Virus record (IMG/VR): IMGVR_UViG_2703719355_000004
Coordinates: 1-6,418 of that record
Direction: 5' to 3' (one strand)
DNA from: a virus
Lineage: Duplodnaviria > Heunggongvirae > Uroviricota > Caudoviricetes
Length of the DNA stretch: 6,418 bases
Shown here: one piece after another, positions 1-6,418 of the stretch
Numbering within the stretch: position 1 is the stretch's first letter
Layout of the letters: each line of letters opens with the position of its first letter
The notes under the pieces: model-generated
Database searches by the model: none
The model's input: only the letters and a program-made list of their open reading frames with translations
What the model was told of the DNA's origin: nothing
Translations under genes and position numbers: made by a program

Positions 1-167
1 TCGGAGACGGTAATAATTGAGTTCAGCATCTGCTGTAAGTCCTGGGCTTTCTCCATCGCCCATGCCGCTGGCTCCGGTCGTTGACTTTGCACAGGTGGCG
101 GCGACTTGCAGGCGCTTACGACCAGCAGAAACATCAGCACGGAGACTTTCGATAGTCGCGTTAGCAT
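1..167 (-). CDS. Rz1: Rz1-like o-spanin (outer-membrane lipoprotein) embedded out of frame inside Rz; partial, 3' end lies beyond window start
   Basis: Minus-strand ATG at 167..165 preceded by AAGGAG with a 7-nt spacer. Translation [36 protein letters not shown]... has a short signal peptide ending in a lipobox-like VVSAC and a Pro-rich mature part, as in lambda Rz1. It lies wholly inside the Rz ORF in another frame. No stop codon before position 1. Confidence 0.7.
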
Positions 168-366
168 CAGCAAGCTCCTTTGTGTATCTGGCGTCGAGTT
201 CTGCTACATCACGTTGACGCTTCTGCATGTCAGCGATGATGGATGCGGCCTTATCGCGCTGCTCTTTGTAGGCGATGGCGTTATCACGGTAATGATTAAC
301 AGCCCATGACAGGCAGGCGATAATGCAGATAACCAGAGCGGAGATAATCGCGGTTACTCTGCTCAT
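1..366 (-). CDS. Rz: Rz-like i-spanin; partial, C-terminus beyond window start
   Basis: Minus-strand ATG at 366..364 overlaps the endolysin stop (ATGA). Translation [41 protein letters not shown]... closely resembles lambda Rz from memory (N-terminal TM helix, then charged coiled-coil region). Open frame continues to position 1 (122 codons in window). Confidence 0.9.
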
Positions 367-860
367 TGCTGACCCCACAAACAGATTTCACGCTCAATCT
401 CACGACGAGTCATGAGACCTTTCCATTGCTTACCGCCAGCATATGTCCAGCGACGTAGCTGATCACATGCGCCTTTGATATCGCCCTGGTTGATTTTGCG
501 AAGAAGCGTCGATGTTCTGAAATTGCCAGCACCCACGTTGTAAACGAACGAGTAAAGAGCGCCGCGCGTTGTTTCCGGTATATCGACTTTGATGTACGGG
601 TTAATTTGTCTGGCGACAGTGGCAAGGTCTTTATTCAGGAGGGCTTTGCATTCTGCTTCGGTATACGTTTTACCTGGTATGATGTCTTTTCCGGTGTGTC
701 CGTGACATACAGTCCATACACCAACAATATCTTTGTATGGTATGTAGCTGACACCTTCCAGACCATCGTTACCACTTGGACCCGTGATTAACACAGATGC
801 TATAGCAATAGCCCCGCCACCAATAGCAGCAGCAACGGCTTTTCGTAATGATGGAGGCAT
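363..860 (-). CDS. R: SAR endolysin (T4-lysozyme-like muramidase, phage 21 R-type)
   Basis: 165-aa ORF. N-terminal Gly/Ala-rich weakly hydrophobic segment ([19 protein letters not shown]) typical of a signal-anchor-release domain. Catalytic triad spacing E35-x8-D44-x5-T50 ([17 protein letters not shown]) of T4-lysozyme-like enzymes. Start overlaps holin stop (TAATG); GAGGTGA RBS 5 nt upstream. Confidence 0.93.
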
Positions 861-1075
861 TATTCACCTCTCGCAGCCTTTCGTCTGTCTTCTCTGATTT
901 TGAAATACAGATTTGTCAGATAGGTGAGAAAGCCCAACACAAGGCTTCCAAGCACCCCAATCGCAGCCCACTGTGATGGACTGACCTGATCCAACCACTG
1001 CAAAAACCAGTATCCCGCACTACCAGCGGATGTTCCGTAGGCAATGCCAGTTGAGATTTTGTCCATTGATTTCAT
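860..1075 (-). CDS. S: Class II pinholin/antiholin with dual start (phage 21 S21 / DLP12 EssD-like)
   Basis: 71-aa [74 protein letters not shown]. Two hydrophobic segments and a charged C-terminus. Dual-start motif M1-K-S-M4 (antiholin from 1075, holin from 1066). GGAGG RBS 8 nt upstream. Matches the phage 21 pinholin as far as I recall it. Confidence 0.9.
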
Positions 1076-1472
1076 AGCAACGCCTCCGCAAGTAACGGAT
1101 TGCGTAGTTCTTATATTGGGAATGGGGAAAAGAAGGCCGCAGCGTAACTATCACTGATGAATTCAGGACAGCCAGTGGCTACGGCTCAGTTTGGGTTGTG
1201 CTGTTGCTGGGCGGCGATGACGCCTGTACGCATTTGGTGATCCGGTTCTGCTTCCGGTATTCGCTTAATTCAGCACAACGATAAGAGCACTCAGTGCATT
1301 TAAGCCAAGCCCCATAAGGGAGAATGCTCTTACCTGTTGTGCAGACAAAAAACCGCACGGCGGCGGGTTTAAGCTGTGTGGCGAAGTTACCCATCTTTAC
1401 CAAGTATTCGGTAATAAAATAACTTGTGGTGTTCTCATTTTTATGCCGATAAAATAAACGGTCCACTTTCAA

Positions 1473-2405
1473 ATGGAGCGATTCATGATTTTTCTCAGAA
1501 CTGAAAACGGCATCGAGAAACTTGAAAACTGGGAGGAAATTATATCCAGACCAAACTTTGTCACCACTATAGACAAAGGAGTTCAACAACTTGAGGAGAT
1601 AATTGGTTACTACAAATTTAAAGAAGAAATCCACTGTGGTCTAACTGGTTGCAACCAACCACATCAAATGGGTTATATTGTAAAAACATCTAGTGGCATT
1701 GAAACCAACATCGGAAATAAATGTGGTAAAAACGAATTTGGTGTGGAATTTGGTGAAAACGTTCTTAGTTTCAATAAATTTATGCAACTCGAAACCAATC
1801 GGGAAATTATTAGCACCGCAAAAAGTAAATGTGAAGAGTGGCAAAAAAATATTGAAACGATACGAAATATCAAACCCACAATAGATTATCTATCTTCTAC
1901 CATCGAAAATAGTAAAAATTCCAATTACTCCGGAAGACTTGGTGCTACAGAAATTCGTTTTTTGACCAAGAGCCAGACAGGCCTTGTAACCCTTTCTGAA
2001 GTGGAAACTGATAAGAATACCAAAACAATTCTGTTCGCAATGAATGAACACATGCGCGAGTCTGGAGAGGCAATAAGTGAATTCTACATAGGAAAAGTAT
2101 CATTTAGTCATGTTCTTTTACCAGAAAACAATCTTCGTGATTTTTTTGTTGCGCTCAAAGAAGATATAAAAAAAATTCAGTGTATTGATCTACAAACAGC
2201 CCCAAGCCCAGAAATTTCTAATGTTGCCCAAATTGCCAGTTCAATCGAAGAACGAATCAAGCGATTAAAAAAACTGAAACATGAAGCCAGTAAATTCCTA
2301 ACTAAAAAAAATCTGCGTCCCATCGCAAACAAAATAAAATACTCATCGACAGCGGATGAACTTGAATTCCATAATTTCGAACGCTTTTTAAACGGGCTGA
2401 AATGA
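1473..2405 (+). CDS. Hypothetical protein, AT-rich foreign insert in the Q-S moron slot; candidate accessory/anti-phage gene (function unknown)
   Basis: Long uninterrupted ORF (310 aa from ATG 1473; 306 aa from ATG 1485, which has GGAG 6 nt upstream). Only plus-strand gene in the window, convergent with Q. Visibly much more A+T-rich than all flanking genes, with K/E/N/I-rich codon usage. Hairpin terminator directly after the stop. No family recognised. Confidence 0.8.
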   Translation: MERFMIFLRTENGIEKLENWEEIISRPNFVTTIDKGVQQLEEIIGYYKFKEEIHCGLTGCNQPHQMGYIVKTSSGIETNIGNKCGKNEFGVEFGENVLSFNKFMQLETNREIISTAKSKCEEWQKNIETIRNIKPTIDYLSSTIENSKNSNYSGRLGATEIRFLTKSQTGLVTLSEVETDKNTKTILFAMNEHMRESGEAISEFYIGKVSFSHVLLPENNLRDFFVALKEDIKKIQCIDLQTAPSPEISNVAQIASSIEERIKRLKKLKHEASKFLTKKNLRPIANKIKYSSTADELEFHNFERFLNGLK

Positions 2406-2408
2406 TAA

Positions 2409-2426
2409 AAGCCCCGAAAGGGGCTT
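2409..2426. terminator. Intrinsic terminator hairpin (7-bp stem, GAAA tetraloop), probably bidirectional between the convergent genes
   Basis: AAGCCCC-GAAA-GGGGCTT at 2409-2426. On the minus strand the stem is followed by TTATCATTT; on the plus strand it is preceded by an A-run and followed by CTATCAAAATCATTT. Sits 4 nt after the moron stop and about 95 nt downstream of the Q stop. Confidence 0.55.
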
Positions 2427-2519
2427 CTATCAAAATCATTTACGCATTATTCCGCATGCTTAAAAGAATACATGACAGATTCGGACAAAATCAAGTGCAA
2501 TGTCGCAAAAACCCTAAGC
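2427..2519 (-). promoter_or_regulatory. Putative Q-dependent late promoter region (pR'-like, possibly with the Q-utilisation site) between the Q stop and the hairpin
   Basis: Position only: lambdoid pR'/qut lie immediately downstream of Q and upstream of the first late terminator. Weak sigma70-like hexamers on the minus strand (TTGATT, 18-nt spacer, TATTCT with TG just upstream; or TTGCAC, 17-nt spacer, TGTCAT). No strong consensus match. Confidence 0.25.
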
Positions 2520-3350
2520 TTAGTTCACATCATCACCAAAACTTGTCACATTCTGAAAAGCAATATCGGCCTTACGCTCTTCCTGGTGGCAAATGTCAAC
2601 CAGAGAATCAAGAAACGGCTTCCAATTACGCGTCCATGTCCTGACATGTAGCTCGGGTATCCGCTTCAGTACAACTTTATATACTGTGGTAGACGGTACC
2701 GTGGAAAATCCATTTCCGCTGCAACGTTCGCAGATTTTAAACACTGGCACACCACGCTCGCTTGTGGCTTTGCGGTCCAGTACCTCTCCCTTTCCACCAC
2801 AACGACACCTGGCACTTATCACTCCCTTCCCTCTACATACATCGCAAACGACTAGTACAACTTCCGTTACCTCTGTCCATTTCTCCCAATCTGACGGTCG
2901 AACAGCACGGGAGCGACTGGCCCAATATGGTGCTTTACCCCATGGGTATGAAACCTTACGAATGACCTGCTTACGGGGTGTTAGTCCGGTACCACTGCAA
3001 CTATGGCATGTTACGCTGGTGGCCGCCGATCGGGAATACTCAGCAAAAGCAAACTGCGCCAGTACCAGCATACACCAGCCAAATTCACCACCAGCTGCTT
3101 TACGCACATTCTTCGGTGCAATTTCCATCGCGTGACGCGCCAGCGCCTGGACTGCCATCTGCTCATCAGTCTTGCTGATACCGGCCTTCCCGAAGAAGGC
3201 CGCCAGGCCAAACCGCTCACGATTGCTGGTGGTACCAATAGCCGCCATAACATCGGTGCCTGTAAGACGTTCCGGAGAGGTTCCTTTCACATCGTCGCCG
3301 ATATACATTCCCTGAGGACTGAAGTATTTTAGCGATGCCTCAAGCTTCAT
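2520..3350 (-). CDS. Q: Late-gene antitermination protein Q (Q82/933W-like family) with Cys-rich zinc-finger repeats
   Basis: 276-aa ORF immediately upstream of the lysis region on the late strand. Contains TGTDVMAA...FG.AAF.GK and AQFAFAEYSRSAAT followed by CxxCxGxG motifs, which I recall from enterobacterial prophage Q proteins. Four Cys pairs: C115/C118, C169/C172, C182/C184, C207/C210. Start overlaps upstream gene stop (TAATG). Confidence 0.75.
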   Translation of the reverse strand: MKLEASLKYFSPQGMYIGDDVKGTSPERLTGTDVMAAIGTTSNRERFGLAAFFGKAGISKTDEQMAVQALARHAMEIAPKNVRKAAGGEFGWCMLVLAQFAFAEYSRSAATSVTCHSCSGTGLTPRKQVIRKVSYPWGKAPYWASRSRAVRPSDWEKWTEVTEVVLVVCDVCRGKGVISARCRCGGKGEVLDRKATSERGVPVFKICERCSGNGFSTVPSTTVYKVVLKRIPELHVRTWTRNWKPFLDSLVDICHQEERKADIAFQNVTSFGDDVN

Positions 3351-4207
3351 TATTCACACTCCCCAACCAGATTAAGAATAACCGCCGCGCCATTGTCTTT
3401 CATATATTCGCCCTTTCCGCTTGCCAAAAACCAACGACACACCTCCACGGCTTCAGCCCGTGTCACCGGTTTGATGGTCATCAGCAATTTTTCAAGATAG
3501 CGCTCGCGGTCATATACCGATTCGTGATGCTCAGAGTAACCAAACTCATCGCCCTGTTCTTTAGTTGCAGTGTGGCGAACACTGTAGAGCCAGTCCCAGT
3601 AAACAAACTCACGAACTACGTCTGACAATGTATGAGGCTCTGGCAGTACATCACGATAGCCATCAACATATGCCCGGCGCTGATCATCAATTTCATTCAT
3701 ACGGATGCCGTCAATTCTGCCCGCGTTCTTCTCGGCTGCAGTCCAGCCCCAAAAGTGATCGTCGATAAATTTCGGGGAAGACTTGATTACTCGCTCGGCC
3801 TCCACATCTTCGAGAGCTGCCTCATAGCTGCCGAACGTGGCCCTGACTGATGCTGCTTTTTTGATGTTCTCCCGGGCGTTCTTGATTGCCCGGGCCGGGT
3901 TATCCATGCCGATGATACCGAAAGCAACCTGGAAAGGATCTCCACCATTCGCCAGCAGATAACGCGAATAGCGTTCCTGGGCCTCTTTTGGGGAAATTTT
4001 AATTTTCACCAGCGCGGCCTCAGCAGCATCCAGATGTGCGGGTTCGTTCAGACGGATAACCTCCAGCACCCAAAGATAAGCATCAGTCTGCTTATGCCCG
4101 GTGATTCTCCGTTGCTCTGGCAGGGGCTTAATGTTTGCGATGGCGGAGCTGTACGTTGCCGTCGGGATGGTGAATAGTGCTTTATGTTCGTTGTTATCAG
4201 TACGCAT
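3350..4207 (-). CDS. Hypothetical phage protein (unknown function), between primase-like gene and Q
   Basis: 285-aa ORF with flank-like base composition, coupled at both ends by TAATG stop/start overlaps to the primase-like gene and Q. No nucleotide-binding or catalytic motif recognised. Confidence 0.75.
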   Translation of the reverse strand: MRTDNNEHKALFTIPTATYSSAIANIKPLPEQRRITGHKQTDAYLWVLEVIRLNEPAHLDAAEAALVKIKISPKEAQERYSRYLLANGGDPFQVAFGIIGMDNPARAIKNARENIKKAASVRATFGSYEAALEDVEAERVIKSSPKFIDDHFWGWTAAEKNAGRIDGIRMNEIDDQRRAYVDGYRDVLPEPHTLSDVVREFVYWDWLYSVRHTATKEQGDEFGYSEHHESVYDRERYLEKLLMTIKPVTRAEAVEVCRWFLASGKGEYMKDNGAAVILNLVGECE

Positions 4208-5175
4208 TACGCAACCGCCTTTTTCTTATGGAAAACCAGCTCTCGAACCTGATCACCGTTCATGAGCATATTGTTGAAATCATCGTGATCCGGCCAGTAC
4301 ACGCTCACGCGCTGCAGGTCATTCTTTGCCATCAGATTGGCATGAGCACATTCGCAAGCTGCAGCCAGCCCGGTGGCGCTGTTCTCGTCACGGTCGGCAA
4401 AAATAATCAGGTGCAGAACACCAGCTGGTACGCGGAACTTTTTCATAAAGCCGCTGTTAATGGTTGCCCAAGTGTTCACGTTATAAATCTGGTGCGCTGA
4501 CAGCGCTGTTTCGATACCTTCGGCGATACCCAGAGTGCTGGCGACAGGAAACATGCGGATAGCTACAGAACGAGCGTGATCCAAATAGTTATCTTCCTGC
4601 AGGGATTTGAGGCGCTTTGCACTGCTACCGATATCTGCTTTTTTATCACCATCAAGCAGAGTCTGGTGCAGATAGCACAACTCCCCTTTATCGTCCGTAG
4701 CAAGTGAATAAAGAGACTGGAACACACTCCCGTTGTGTCTCTGCCTGGCATTGAACCGGATCGCCTCAGCAGGAAGACTGAATATTCCACGAGAATTAAG
4801 ATACGCTGCGCCGGATGTACCACGCAGTGCCTCCAGTTTTGAAAACTTGCTCAATACCCGTTTGCGTAAGCTGGTGGCGCTGCTGGTTACCGGGATTTTA
4901 ACCCGTTGGTAATCATTACCGATCAGGCGGTCTATTTCGGTACAAATCTCGTTAAATGGCTTCGCCTGTGTCAGGGTGACAAGTTTCATACCATCGCCAC
5001 TACCACATACACAGATCCACGTTCCTGCACCGTCGCGGTCGTCAATTCGGAACTTGCCACGTGCACCGCATACCGGGCATTCACCCTTGAAGTGATTTTT
5101 TCCGGTTATCGGCGGCAGACCGAAGTGCTCTAATATTTCAGGCCAGCGGCCTTTCGCTGCATCTGCTGTTTTCAT
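4207..5175 (-). CDS. Primase-like protein: N-terminal primase-type zinc ribbon plus Toprim domain
   Basis: 322-aa ORF. N-terminal CPVCGARGKF...WICVCGSGDG (C-x2-C...C-x-C) resembles the zinc-binding domain of P4-alpha/TraC-type primases. Toprim signatures: conserved Glu in GIAEGIETALS and acidic DxD-type motif in LIIFADRDENSATG. ATG lies 1 nt after the helicase stop. Confidence 0.8.
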   Translation of the reverse strand: MKTADAAKGRWPEILEHFGLPPITGKNHFKGECPVCGARGKFRIDDRDGAGTWICVCGSGDGMKLVTLTQAKPFNEICTEIDRLIGNDYQRVKIPVTSSATSLRKRVLSKFSKLEALRGTSGAAYLNSRGIFSLPAEAIRFNARQRHNGSVFQSLYSLATDDKGELCYLHQTLLDGDKKADIGSSAKRLKSLQEDNYLDHARSVAIRMFPVASTLGIAEGIETALSAHQIYNVNTWATINSGFMKKFRVPAGVLHLIIFADRDENSATGLAAACECAHANLMAKNDLQRVSVYWPDHDDFNNMLMNGDQVRELVFHKKKAVA

Positions 5176-5176
5176 C

Positions 5177-6418
5177 TTACTGACTCAGACTGTTTATATT
5201 TTTCTGGAGTTGGTGCTTTGCCTGCATGATGCGCCAGGCCTCACTGCCTGCCGGTATCTCACGTCGTTCATCACGTTCCTGAGATAAATCAATCGTTGTT
5301 TGTGCGTTTTCAGTGACCTTCTGAACCCGCTGGTGGCCTTTGGCAAACCGGATCAGTTTGTGTCTGATGTAGTTATTTACCTCAGGGGTAATTTCCATCG
5401 GAAAGTTACTCAGTCCGTCAGGCCACTCACCGAACTTTTCCCGGAAAGTGTGAGCACACCATCCGTCACTGACTGGACGCCCCAGCGAAGCACGCTGGCG
5501 CTGATAAAATTTGATCTGACTCCACCAGGACTGTTTCTCTGCCTTCGTCGACTGATGCTGATTTTTACCCAGCTTATTAAGTTTGCGGCTAGTGTCAGTA
5601 TCAACGTCTTCACCTCGCAGCGGCTTGTGTCCACATTTCGGGCAAACATAGACGCCTGCTGGCTTCATGTAGTGGCATTGGGGGCATTCATGTGGCAGTT
5701 TTGCGGCCCGTTCCTCAACTGCCCGGCGCGCGCTTTCCTCCATGCCGTCAGACTTACCGGGAAGCTCGTCGTACTCGATTGAATCCGGATAACCCAAACG
5801 GTGCACGGTGCCGCTGTGATCGAAGATAAGGCAGGACTCTTTACCCGGTGCGGTGCGCAGCCCACGCCCGAGAGCCTGCAACCAGCGAATTTCGCTTTTT
5901 GTTGGCCTGGCGTAGATGATGCAACGAACGTCACTATCAAAGCCGGCCACCAGAACGCCCACACTAACGATGATTTTCGTTGCACCGGTTTCAAAGCGGT
6001 GAATGATGGTCTGGCGCTCATCTACCGGAGTGTCGGCGGTCATTACCTCAGCGTTAACACCCGCCAGGTTAAACTGGATTGTCAGATAATTGGCGTGAGC
6101 TACGTTGACGCAGAAAGCGATGGTAGGTAAATCCCGACCATTCTCCAGCCAGTTCTGTACGATGTCGCCCACCAGCGTAGAGCCGCACATGATTTCAGCC
6201 AGCTGTGTTTCGTTGTAATCGCGGCCGTACTCAAGCGAAGATGTGGTTTTAACACCTTTCAGATCCGGCTTAGTTGGCGCGTAAAATTCGTATTTACTCA
6301 GATCGCCACGCTGGATTAACTCGCCGATGGTGGTCGGCTTAATCAGTCGGTCTGAACCGCCCCGGAAATCCTGGAGACTAAACTCCCTGAGAAAGAGGTA
6401 AACAGGATGACTAAAAAT
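5177..6418 (-). CDS. SF2 (DEAD/DEAH-like) helicase, C-terminal portion; N-terminus beyond window end
   Basis: Minus-strand frame is open from 6418 to stop at 5177 (the ORF track begins at an internal Met at 6190). Helicase C-terminal-domain motifs are present: VGVLVAGFDSDV, IIYARPTKSEIRWLQALGRGLR (QxxGRxxR motif VI). A C-terminal zinc ribbon follows (CPQCHY...CPKCGH). Confidence 0.8.
   Translation of the reverse strand: MFSHPVYLFLREFSLQDFRGGSDRLIKPTTIGELIQRGDLSKYEFYAPTKPDLKGVKTTSSLEYGRDYNETQLAEIMCGSTLVGDIVQNWLENGRDLPTIAFCVNVAHANYLTIQFNLAGVNAEVMTADTPVDERQTIIHRFETGATKIIVSVGVLVAGFDSDVRCIIYARPTKSEIRWLQALGRGLRTAPGKESCLIFDHSGTVHRLGYPDSIEYDELPGKSDGMEESARRAVEERAAKLPHECPQCHYMKPAGVYVCPKCGHKPLRGEDVDTDTSRKLNKLGKNQHQSTKAEKQSWWSQIKFYQRQRASLGRPVSDGWCAHTFREKFGEWPDGLSNFPMEITPEVNNYIRHKLIRFAKGHQRVQKVTENAQTTIDLSQERDERREIPAGSEAWRIMQAKHQLQKNINSLSQ

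Follow-up and report, generated by a model that had tools for sequence, protein, structure and literature searches.

We analysed a window of 6,418 nucleotides (nt) from a virus of the class Caudoviricetes (IMG/VR record IMGVR_UViG_2703719355_000004, positions 1 to 6,418), in which a plus-strand gene, here called gene X, lies between the gene for the late antiterminator Q and the holin gene of a lambdoid prophage (Table 1). Scans for open reading frames (ORFs) and for protein families agree with a preliminary description of this DNA in placing all recognisable phage genes on the minus strand and gene X alone on the plus strand, convergent with Q; ORF 1473-2405 is the only long plus-strand ORF in the window with a family match. 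We regard gene X as a candidate defence gene of the prophage, a defence role being predicted and the best-supported hypothesis for its product.

The preliminary description gave the gene as 1473-2405 and its product as 310 amino acids (aa). The ORF is real, and its start moves downstream: translation almost certainly begins at ATG 1485, giving 306 aa, and not at the alternative upstream ATG 1473 (310 aa), because a GGAG lies 6 nt ahead of ATG 1485, because nearly all homologues begin with MIF(L/I)RT, and because the four-codon upstream extension holds a stop codon in two homologous loci (L107 and L108). That the gene is far more A+T-rich than its surroundings, and compositionally foreign to them, was borne out. 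Its G+C content (GC) is 35.5% (30.6% at third codon positions, GC3), against 51.0% in the remainder of the window, and equal-sized windows elsewhere averaged 50.8% (standard deviation 1.4%, minimum 47.8%), which places gene X about 11 standard deviations down and below every one of them. The low-GC block extends over approximately 1400-2519 and thus takes in the spacer between gene X and Q as well.

Table 1. Features of the 6,418-nt window, with gene X and the elements around it listed ahead of the other genes and segments.
Feature	Position	Strand	Remarks
Gene X	1485-2405	plus	306 aa; phrog_7003; full-length family match; homologues start at the same Met
N-terminal beta-rich domain, residues 1-88	1485-1748	plus	
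Putative zinc ligands	Cys51 1635-1637; Cys56 1650-1652; His60 1662-1664; Cys80 1722-1724	plus	
C-terminal, mostly helical domain	1749-2402	plus	Long helices, small beta insert; invariant Asn276 in FLxxxNL motif
Candidate -10 TAAAAT of gene X promoter	1450-1455	plus	Consensus-level prediction; weak -35
Shine-Dalgarno GGAG	1475-1478	plus	6 nt ahead of ATG 1485; direct sequence reading
Terminator common to both strands	2400-2428; hairpin 2408-2427		8-pair stem, ~-13 kcal/mol on either strand
Candidate late promoter	2446-2494	minus	3' of Q; blocks conserved in alignment A4
-35-like TTGATT	2494-2489	minus	Of candidate late promoter; 18-nt spacer to -10
-10-like TATTCT	2470-2465	minus	TATCAT or TATGAT in relatives
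Invariant -10-like element GGAATAAT	2453-2446	minus	
Second terminator-like hairpin	1352-1364	minus (late strand)	Upstream of gene X start
Late antiterminator Q, 276 aa	2520-3350	minus	PF03589, E 1.6e-52; phrog_127, E 2e-98; convergent with gene X
P21-type holin	860-1075	minus	PF04971, E 8.6e-36; first downstream lysis gene of the late operon
Endolysin	363-860	minus	PF00959
Non-coding segment	1133-1291		97% identity to lambda 44845-45003 (late leader, between late terminator and S)
285-aa protein, phrog_6204	3350-4207	minus	No Pfam match
Toprim/zinc-ribbon primase	4207-5175	minus	
Helicase, C-terminal part	from 5177	minus	
IS3-family (IS1203-like) insertion sequence end	6353-6418		Last 66 bases of the window

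The gene X protein matched phrog_7003 of PHROGs v4 with an E value of 4.3e-111, residues 5-310 aligning to positions 1-309 of the 309-position profile; phrog_7003 carries no assigned function. Close homologues number 96, are 40-97% identical, come from Enterobacterales only and are all annotated 'hypothetical protein'. Using a family profile to search 1.84 billion cluster representatives (clusters at 50% identity), we recovered 844 clusters at E ≤ 0.001, of which 519 reached E ≤ 1e-10, and the members are nearly all 280-320 aa long, match end to end and share one architecture. Thus, whereas the window protein is a full-length member of phrog_7003, the family as recovered here is far broader than phage proteins, with many of the 844 clusters being chromosomal or plasmid-borne.

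Conservation was read from an alignment of 40 sequences reaching down to 20% identity (range 20-58%), in which Tyr43, Cys51, Cys56, His60, Gly63, Gly77, Cys80, Gly81, Phe85 and Asn276 are invariant. The His/Cys cluster picked out in the preliminary description is therefore real, four of its residues (Cys51, Cys56, His60 and Cys80) being invariant family-wide, and their spacing, C-x4-C-x3-H-x19-C, suggests a single, putative Cys3His zinc site. An AlphaFold2 model of the full-length protein, with a predicted local distance difference test score (pLDDT) of 88, consists of an N-terminal beta domain followed by long helices and a small beta insert; modelled alone, the N-terminal domain scored 93. 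In the model Cys51 and Cys56 sit at the tip of a beta-hairpin, the His at the start of the next strand and Cys80 at the start of a helix, much as in treble-clef and zinc-ribbon fingers, whereas the spacing of the ligands fits no Pfam zinc-finger model. The N-terminal domain is slightly acidic and the C-terminal domain slightly basic, with a median isoelectric point (pI) of 8.7. As first described, the protein has neither a Walker A motif nor a transmembrane segment (maximum Kyte-Doolittle value over 19 residues, 0.73), and no signal peptide or membrane segment was found in it. An HNH or His-Me finger nuclease was considered and rejected, as such an assignment has no fold or hidden Markov model support and the protein no spare catalytic His.

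Searches of curated families and of predicted and experimental structures likewise agreed with the earlier statement that the product has no recognisable domain: Pfam, NCBIfam and PADLOC offered no family for the window protein or for 40 relatives. The best Pfam match of the gene X protein was DUF4419 at an E value of 0.09, with no Pfam family common to the 40 members, and the best NCBIfam score was 17.3 bits against a cut-off of 40. PDB sequences, searched with the single query and with the 40-sequence profile, returned chance-level coiled-coil matches only, and Foldseek returned nothing at E ≤ 0.001 from BFVD, a database of viral predicted structures. A Pfam scan of the shorter or differently extended family members uncovered no domain fusions, and no match to known regulator families was found. 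Homology and structure searches of the kind proposed in the preliminary description produced close homologues that are all hypothetical proteins and no informative fold relative in the PDB or BFVD, and they gave no match to a characterised housekeeping or phage structural family.

Gene X occupies a fixed position in enterobacterial prophages. It lies between Q and the holin gene, on the opposite strand and convergent with Q, in five enterobacterial genera: Escherichia coli (locus L001, a close relative with 97.8% DNA identity), Salmonella (L003-L006, 78% protein identity to the window), Pectobacterium (L007, 58%), Providencia (L008, 42%) and Serratia (L017, 40%). Two unrelated families, PF03589 and DUF1133/PF06530, account for the Q proteins of these loci, and at least four for the holins. 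In IMG/VR, 34 contigs contain a member of the enterobacterial clade and 32 of these reach far enough downstream to be informative; the opposite-strand Q gene starts 89-192 nt after gene X in 32/32, and the holin gene lies upstream of gene X in each contig that extends to it. Seven additional, independent loci show this order and orientation as well. The gene had been placed in a cargo slot between Q and the lysis genes, with recurrence of homologues in the Q-S slot proposed as a check. Both the informative contigs and the five genera uphold this placement, and homologues do recur there. What needed amending was the view of a simple insertion: its cargo-type character stands, and it is here not a one-off and is tied to a unit of Q, late promoter and terminator.

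Which type of gene X a phage carries is not tied to its type of Q. A gene X protein 58% identical to that of the window lies beside a Q of the unrelated family, and one just 25.6% identical lies beside a Q that is 87% identical. A direct partnership between the two proteins is therefore disfavoured, and we rejected a functional pairing of gene X with Q.

In prophages converting their hosts to production of Shiga toxin 2f (Stx2f), gene X is found between Q and stxA2f (L021 4139-5059 and L002 5139-6013). Because of this position the late transcript must cross gene X antisense in order to reach stx2f. A study of the 'stx regions' of Stx phages described the layout of Stx2f phages as unusual and did not discuss the gene X ORF (PMC7366253).

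Gene X and the late terminator are interlocked. After the hairpin shared by both strands comes, on the late strand, the U-tract TTTTATCATTT, and the gene X TGA stop codon (2403-2405) has its complement within this tract. A strong intrinsic late-strand terminator lies 2-5 nt past the gene X stop in seven loci representing six independent lineages (the window and six others). By analogy with the late control regions of lambdoid phages, and from consensus and conservation, we infer a late promoter and a sigma-dependent pause element between the Q stop and the hairpin, and take the hairpin as their terminator. The conserved blocks of this region are kept in E. coli and Salmonella relatives and in one relative without gene X (alignment A4), and a comparable promoter-to-terminator order is seen 3' of Q in four other loci. 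Terminators or terminator-like hairpins are also present on the late strand upstream of gene X, 60-370 nt from its start, in four of the six other loci (those of the Stx2f prophage, Salmonella, Pectobacterium and Serratia). With such elements at both sides in the window (1352-1364 and 2408-2427), the AT-rich gene X is bracketed on the late strand. At the loci of E. coli, Salmonella and Pectobacterium alike, the candidate -10 element of its own promoter, TAAAAT, is placed exactly 29 nt ahead of the ATG.

Inside gene X the late strand of the window has two promoter-like sites and one terminator-like hairpin (1806-1873 and 2311-2330, minus strand), and such sites were not above the counts in shuffled sequence. 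A 151-aa ORF antisense to the start of gene X (1179-1634, minus strand) has no family match and is probably spurious.

This arrangement predicts a switch. In the lysogen the late promoter by Q would fire and its transcripts would halt at the hairpin abutting gene X, while a weak sigma-70 promoter of its own would drive gene X the other way, with that hairpin also ending its transcripts. As soon as Q appears, polymerase made resistant to terminators would cross gene X antisense before it gets to the lysis genes (or stx2f), and this passage would suppress gene X by head-on transcriptional interference. In temperate coliphages, convergent promoters are known to interfere with each other's transcription. 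The net outcome would be a gene that is on in lysogens and off during the lytic growth of its own phage, and we consider regulation of this kind, with antisense shut-off by Q-dependent late transcription, to be likely.

The same DNA could instead work in cis, as a transcriptional insulator: a convergent, AT-rich, terminator-bracketed block might limit how much late-promoter transcription leaks on into the lysis or stx genes, with the protein playing a secondary part. Such a role is in keeping with the interlocking of gene and late terminator in each enterobacterial locus examined, with a second late-strand terminator past gene X in five of seven loci, with the occupation of the exact Q-stxA2f interval in Stx2f prophages, and with the nonsense and frameshift alleles described below, which retain the DNA block. 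A cis role cannot, however, account for the family, in which a protein with invariant residues is maintained over 844 clusters, many of them outside phages and with no Q nearby, nor does it sit well with the independence of gene X type from Q type. We consider this explanation very improbable.

Several lines of evidence support the accessory, cargo-like character that the preliminary description had assigned to gene X, namely relatives that lack it, carry a very different allele or have an inactivated copy. Among 5426 complete E. coli genomes, gene X was present in only about 16. In E. coli 2012EL-2448 (L020 3001-3189), which has a related Q, the promoter-like region, the hairpin and approximately 75 nt of the gene X 3' end have been kept, and beyond this piece lie a methyltransferase remnant and tRNA genes; the 3'-end piece is a deletion scar of gene X. 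Phage vB_EcoS-611R1 is closely related to the window in its primase (100% identical), the neighbouring unknown protein (92%), Q (87%) and holin (98.6%), and in the same slot and orientation it has a family member that is just 25.6% identical, again abutting a terminator. When 34 enterobacterial copies were checked, 28 proved intact, and the rest had an early nonsense codon or frameshifts. Of the Stx2f prophages, that of strain 2015C-4136CT1 has an intact gene and phage phi467 a frameshifted one. An allele with an amber codon at position 11 (E11*, TAG) is present in a prophage of the K-12 'invader' strain, E. coli IGC_EcoliInv_1.1 (L142 12141-13061), where RefSeq annotates the 245-aa remainder only. 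This K-12 'invader' gained two prophages in the mouse gut, both of which form particles and lysogenise (PMC6731689). Because the E11* allele sits in a prophage shown to be active, gene X is dispensable for the phage life cycle.

Outside lambdoid phages the family is carried on plasmids, in temperate phages and on chromosomal islands. A locus scan with a narrower family alignment and one genome per species yielded 69 loci, mostly from Beta- and Gammaproteobacteria (among them Burkholderiales, Nitrosomonadales, Xanthomonadales, Pseudomonas and Endozoicomonas). The GC of the family gene averages 8 points under that of its flanks, and is more than 3 points lower in 58 of the 69 loci. All-against-all clustering of 556 ORFs from 67 loci revealed no conserved neighbour, with nothing beyond one Pseudomonas subgroup, and in enterobacterial prophages, too, the neighbours of gene X vary and there is no shared partner gene. 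Because of this low GC relative to the flanks and the lack of a conserved neighbour, the family is, by the evidence of its sequence contexts, a stand-alone gene that moves horizontally. The earlier suggestions of a single-gene system and of horizontal acquisition gain from these results, since no partner is conserved among the ORFs of the 67 loci, the low-GC trend recurs in distant loci and the family also occurs outside phages. A two-gene toxin-antitoxin or abortive-infection module was rejected, there being no conserved partner gene.

Four contigs of Pseudomonas agarici LMG 2112 (L086-L089; 9.5-11.3 kb) each have a divergent homologue that is identical in all four and lies among the same neighbours, which suggests a multi-copy mobile element. 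At locus L018 the family gene lies behind the 3' end of an integrase-like gene, and an integron cassette was not demonstrable there.

We tentatively favour, with somewhat less than even confidence, the reading that gene X specifies a self-contained accessory protein of lambdoid prophages that is expressed in the lysogen for phage exclusion or defence and is off under Q. Its product would be a cytoplasmic protein of approximately 300 aa, with a small N-terminal beta domain, in which Cys51, Cys56, His60 and Cys80 probably coordinate one zinc ion, and a helical domain after it. It would act alone in conflicts among mobile elements, excluding or aborting other phages, with the zinc domain serving as a binding or sensing module and the antisense switch sparing the resident phage, an account that we hold with about the same reserve. 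The preliminary description had thought an anti-phage or host-modifying factor plausible from location; the wider context tilts somewhat more toward a predicted role in conflict or defence.

The phage records and the neighbourhoods of distant members bear on this reading. Homologues are present in seven records of a phage database, which stand for six distinct phages, and all of these are prophage-derived or have lysogeny genes such as repressor, cro or a toxin-antitoxin pair of the immunity region. In the non-lambdoid ones the family gene lies close to the immunity region and on the other strand from the early genes; in the phages of Klebsiella and Pseudomonas (Hollowayvirus) it is near repressor/cro. 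A census of 150 ORFs within three genes on either side of the family gene at 25 loci contained integrases, Tn3 transposases, resolvases, ImmA/IrrE-like peptidases, ankyrin proteins and PD-T4-6-like kinases, together with two strong matches to GajB of the Gabija system. In Rhizobacter a complete Gabija pair is 209 nt from the family gene, in a second genome a GajB gene adjoins it, and in Trinickia a GmrSD/SspE-like protein is encoded three genes away or fewer. Defence-gene neighbours were thus found within three genes in at least 3 of the 25 loci, a figure that has no matched background. For comparison, one study (PMC13092281) reports a known defence gene at a distance of 10 genes or less for 17% of the known defence genes, as against only 2% of E. 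coli genes overall. The association of the family with defence genes is suggestive only, because the sample is small and without a matched background. Elsewhere, an Abi family protein is encoded next to the family gene on a Pseudomonas luteola megaplasmid, a phospholipase D gene lies near it on pQBR103, and toxin-antitoxin genes adjoin it in Burkholderia phage phi644-2 and at locus L018.

A number of results weigh against a defence role or against the predicted switch. PADLOC-DB v2.0.0, with 5027 models, gave no match for the window protein, and across 40 family members PADLOC gave single-member matches only, at E values of 0.0015 or weaker. Fold comparison with the PDB and BFVD produced no informative match, and a literature search by accession, PHROG identifier and context returned no paper on the gene X family. 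In a promoter scan of the window the candidate late promoter fell below threshold and went unreported; nor did the scan report the candidate promoter of gene X, which has a conserved -10 but a poor -35. The neighbour census was small, used self-called ORFs and had no matched background. Many distant members are found amid housekeeping genes, for instance after nrdAB or between panB and a gene of the SseB family. Finally, on Vibrio vulnificus plasmids the family gene has hok and genes for an antirestriction protein and a zincin-like metallopeptidase as neighbours, a context that fits a role in establishment or counter-defence equally well.

These plasmids raise the possibility that the protein serves an element entering a new cell: expressed from its own promoter on entry, it would neutralise a host defence or stress response and be turned off late. 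The V. vulnificus homologue is co-oriented with the antirestriction and metallopeptidase genes and is next to hok, a Rep3 plasmid contig places a homologue among orphan DNA methylase genes, and a constitutive promoter on incoming DNA would likewise mean early expression. These plasmid neighbourhoods, however, are read from annotation only. Moreover, none of the phage records is obviously virulent, as would be common for counter-defence genes, temperate phages keep the gene on the strand opposite both early and late lytic operons, and chromosomal copies adjoin Gabija and other defence genes. We judge an establishment or counter-defence function to be quite unlikely, though less so than the insulator.

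The distant members amid housekeeping genes would also suit a protein directed at the host, a cytoplasmic lysogenic-conversion factor with a zinc motif that would alter host physiology or gene expression to the gain of the lysogen in fitness or virulence; it would be comparable in role, not in mechanism, to other lysogen-expressed cargo of late regions. Moron architecture and a lysogen-compatible orientation fit such a factor too, as does the presence of gene X in gut- and pathogen-associated prophages, Stx2f phages included, and the mildly basic C-terminal domain (median pI 8.7) is compatible with nucleic-acid binding. The range of hosts, which spans soil Burkholderiales, marine Gammaproteobacteria, Pseudomonas and enterics, is nevertheless hard to square with a host-specific target, and allele replacement as in vB_EcoS-611R1, down to 25.6% identity in a phage that otherwise is nearly the same, is rather what genes in an arms race tend to show. 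Nor does the protein have a signal peptide, a membrane segment or a match to a known regulator family. This explanation seems to us unlikely, while being the least so of the three alternatives.

Elsewhere in the window, the helicase gene ceases to match any of its relatives after 6352, just ahead of the insertion sequence end. The replication helicase is thus interrupted, and for this reason the prophage is probably defective. The phrog_6204 protein is also encoded between primase and Q in E. coli, Salmonella and vB_EcoS-611R1 relatives with this replication-Q module, and is missing from the more distant Q relative at L020. When positions 1100-2700 were used as a query, 1250 of 5426 complete E. 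coli genomes matched, mostly only through the lambda-like non-coding segment, a shorter piece of which is carried by the plasmid prophages P7 and D6. Scanning the window for Rfam families and tRNAs brought up nothing relevant.

The features of gene X invite comparison with other cargo genes of temperate phages. Morons, a concept from the Hendrix laboratory, are additional genes that sit within phage operons and bring a promoter and a terminator of their own, such as lambda bor and lom, and lambda bor lies on the strand opposite the late operon. Gene X, which we class as a prophage moron, shares with these genes a patchy occurrence among relatives, a distinct base composition and flanks consisting of a terminator and a predicted promoter, and shares with bor its orientation opposite to the late operon. 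It differs from them in the rigidity of its position, which in five genera and beside two Q families is immediately past the late terminator with the stop codon inside the U-tract, and in specifying a cytoplasmic protein of an unnamed family with no fold match. The slot downstream of Q and the late promoter is the one used by stxAB in Stx phages and by nmpC in DLP12, and Stx2f prophages hold both gene X and stx2f there. However, stx is co-oriented with the late operon and owes its high expression to Q read-through, whereas gene X is antisense and Q read-through should oppose it.

Among phage-exclusion genes the closest parallel is BstA of Salmonella prophage BTP1, a prophage-encoded single-protein defence with self-immunity built in: like it, gene X is a single gene of a temperate phage for a protein of about 300 aa, is plausibly expressed in the lysogen and would need to spare its own phage. 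BstA lies beside the repressor gene and is neutralised by a DNA element (PMC8585504). Gene X, by contrast, has no PADLOC match, and the self-sparing that we propose for it would come from antisense late transcription. The Tai tail-assembly-interference system was also considered and set aside, being another gene at another locus.

A bolder version of the defence reading is that gene X founds a new family of single-protein anti-phage immunity, with an unseen zinc-binding fold and with self-immunity conferred by gene orientation alone. We think this unlikely as a whole, if somewhat less so than any of the alternatives above. Were it true, late transcription of the resident prophage would silence the gene and only foreign phages would meet the active protein; in Stx2f phages the same layout would couple gene X to toxin expression.

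Gene X thus represents an unnamed family of approximately 300-aa proteins that extends over hundreds of clusters from prophages, plasmids and genomic islands of Beta- and Gammaproteobacteria and has no Pfam entry or structural relative. Its rigid placement in enterobacterial prophages provides a concrete and testable regulatory hypothesis, in which the gene would be on in lysogens and off when Q fires. Gene X is also a good candidate for a new exclusion or defence function carried by prophages. Because the late transcript crosses gene X antisense before it reaches the toxin genes, gene X could also affect Stx2f production or prophage stability in an emerging group of pathogens.

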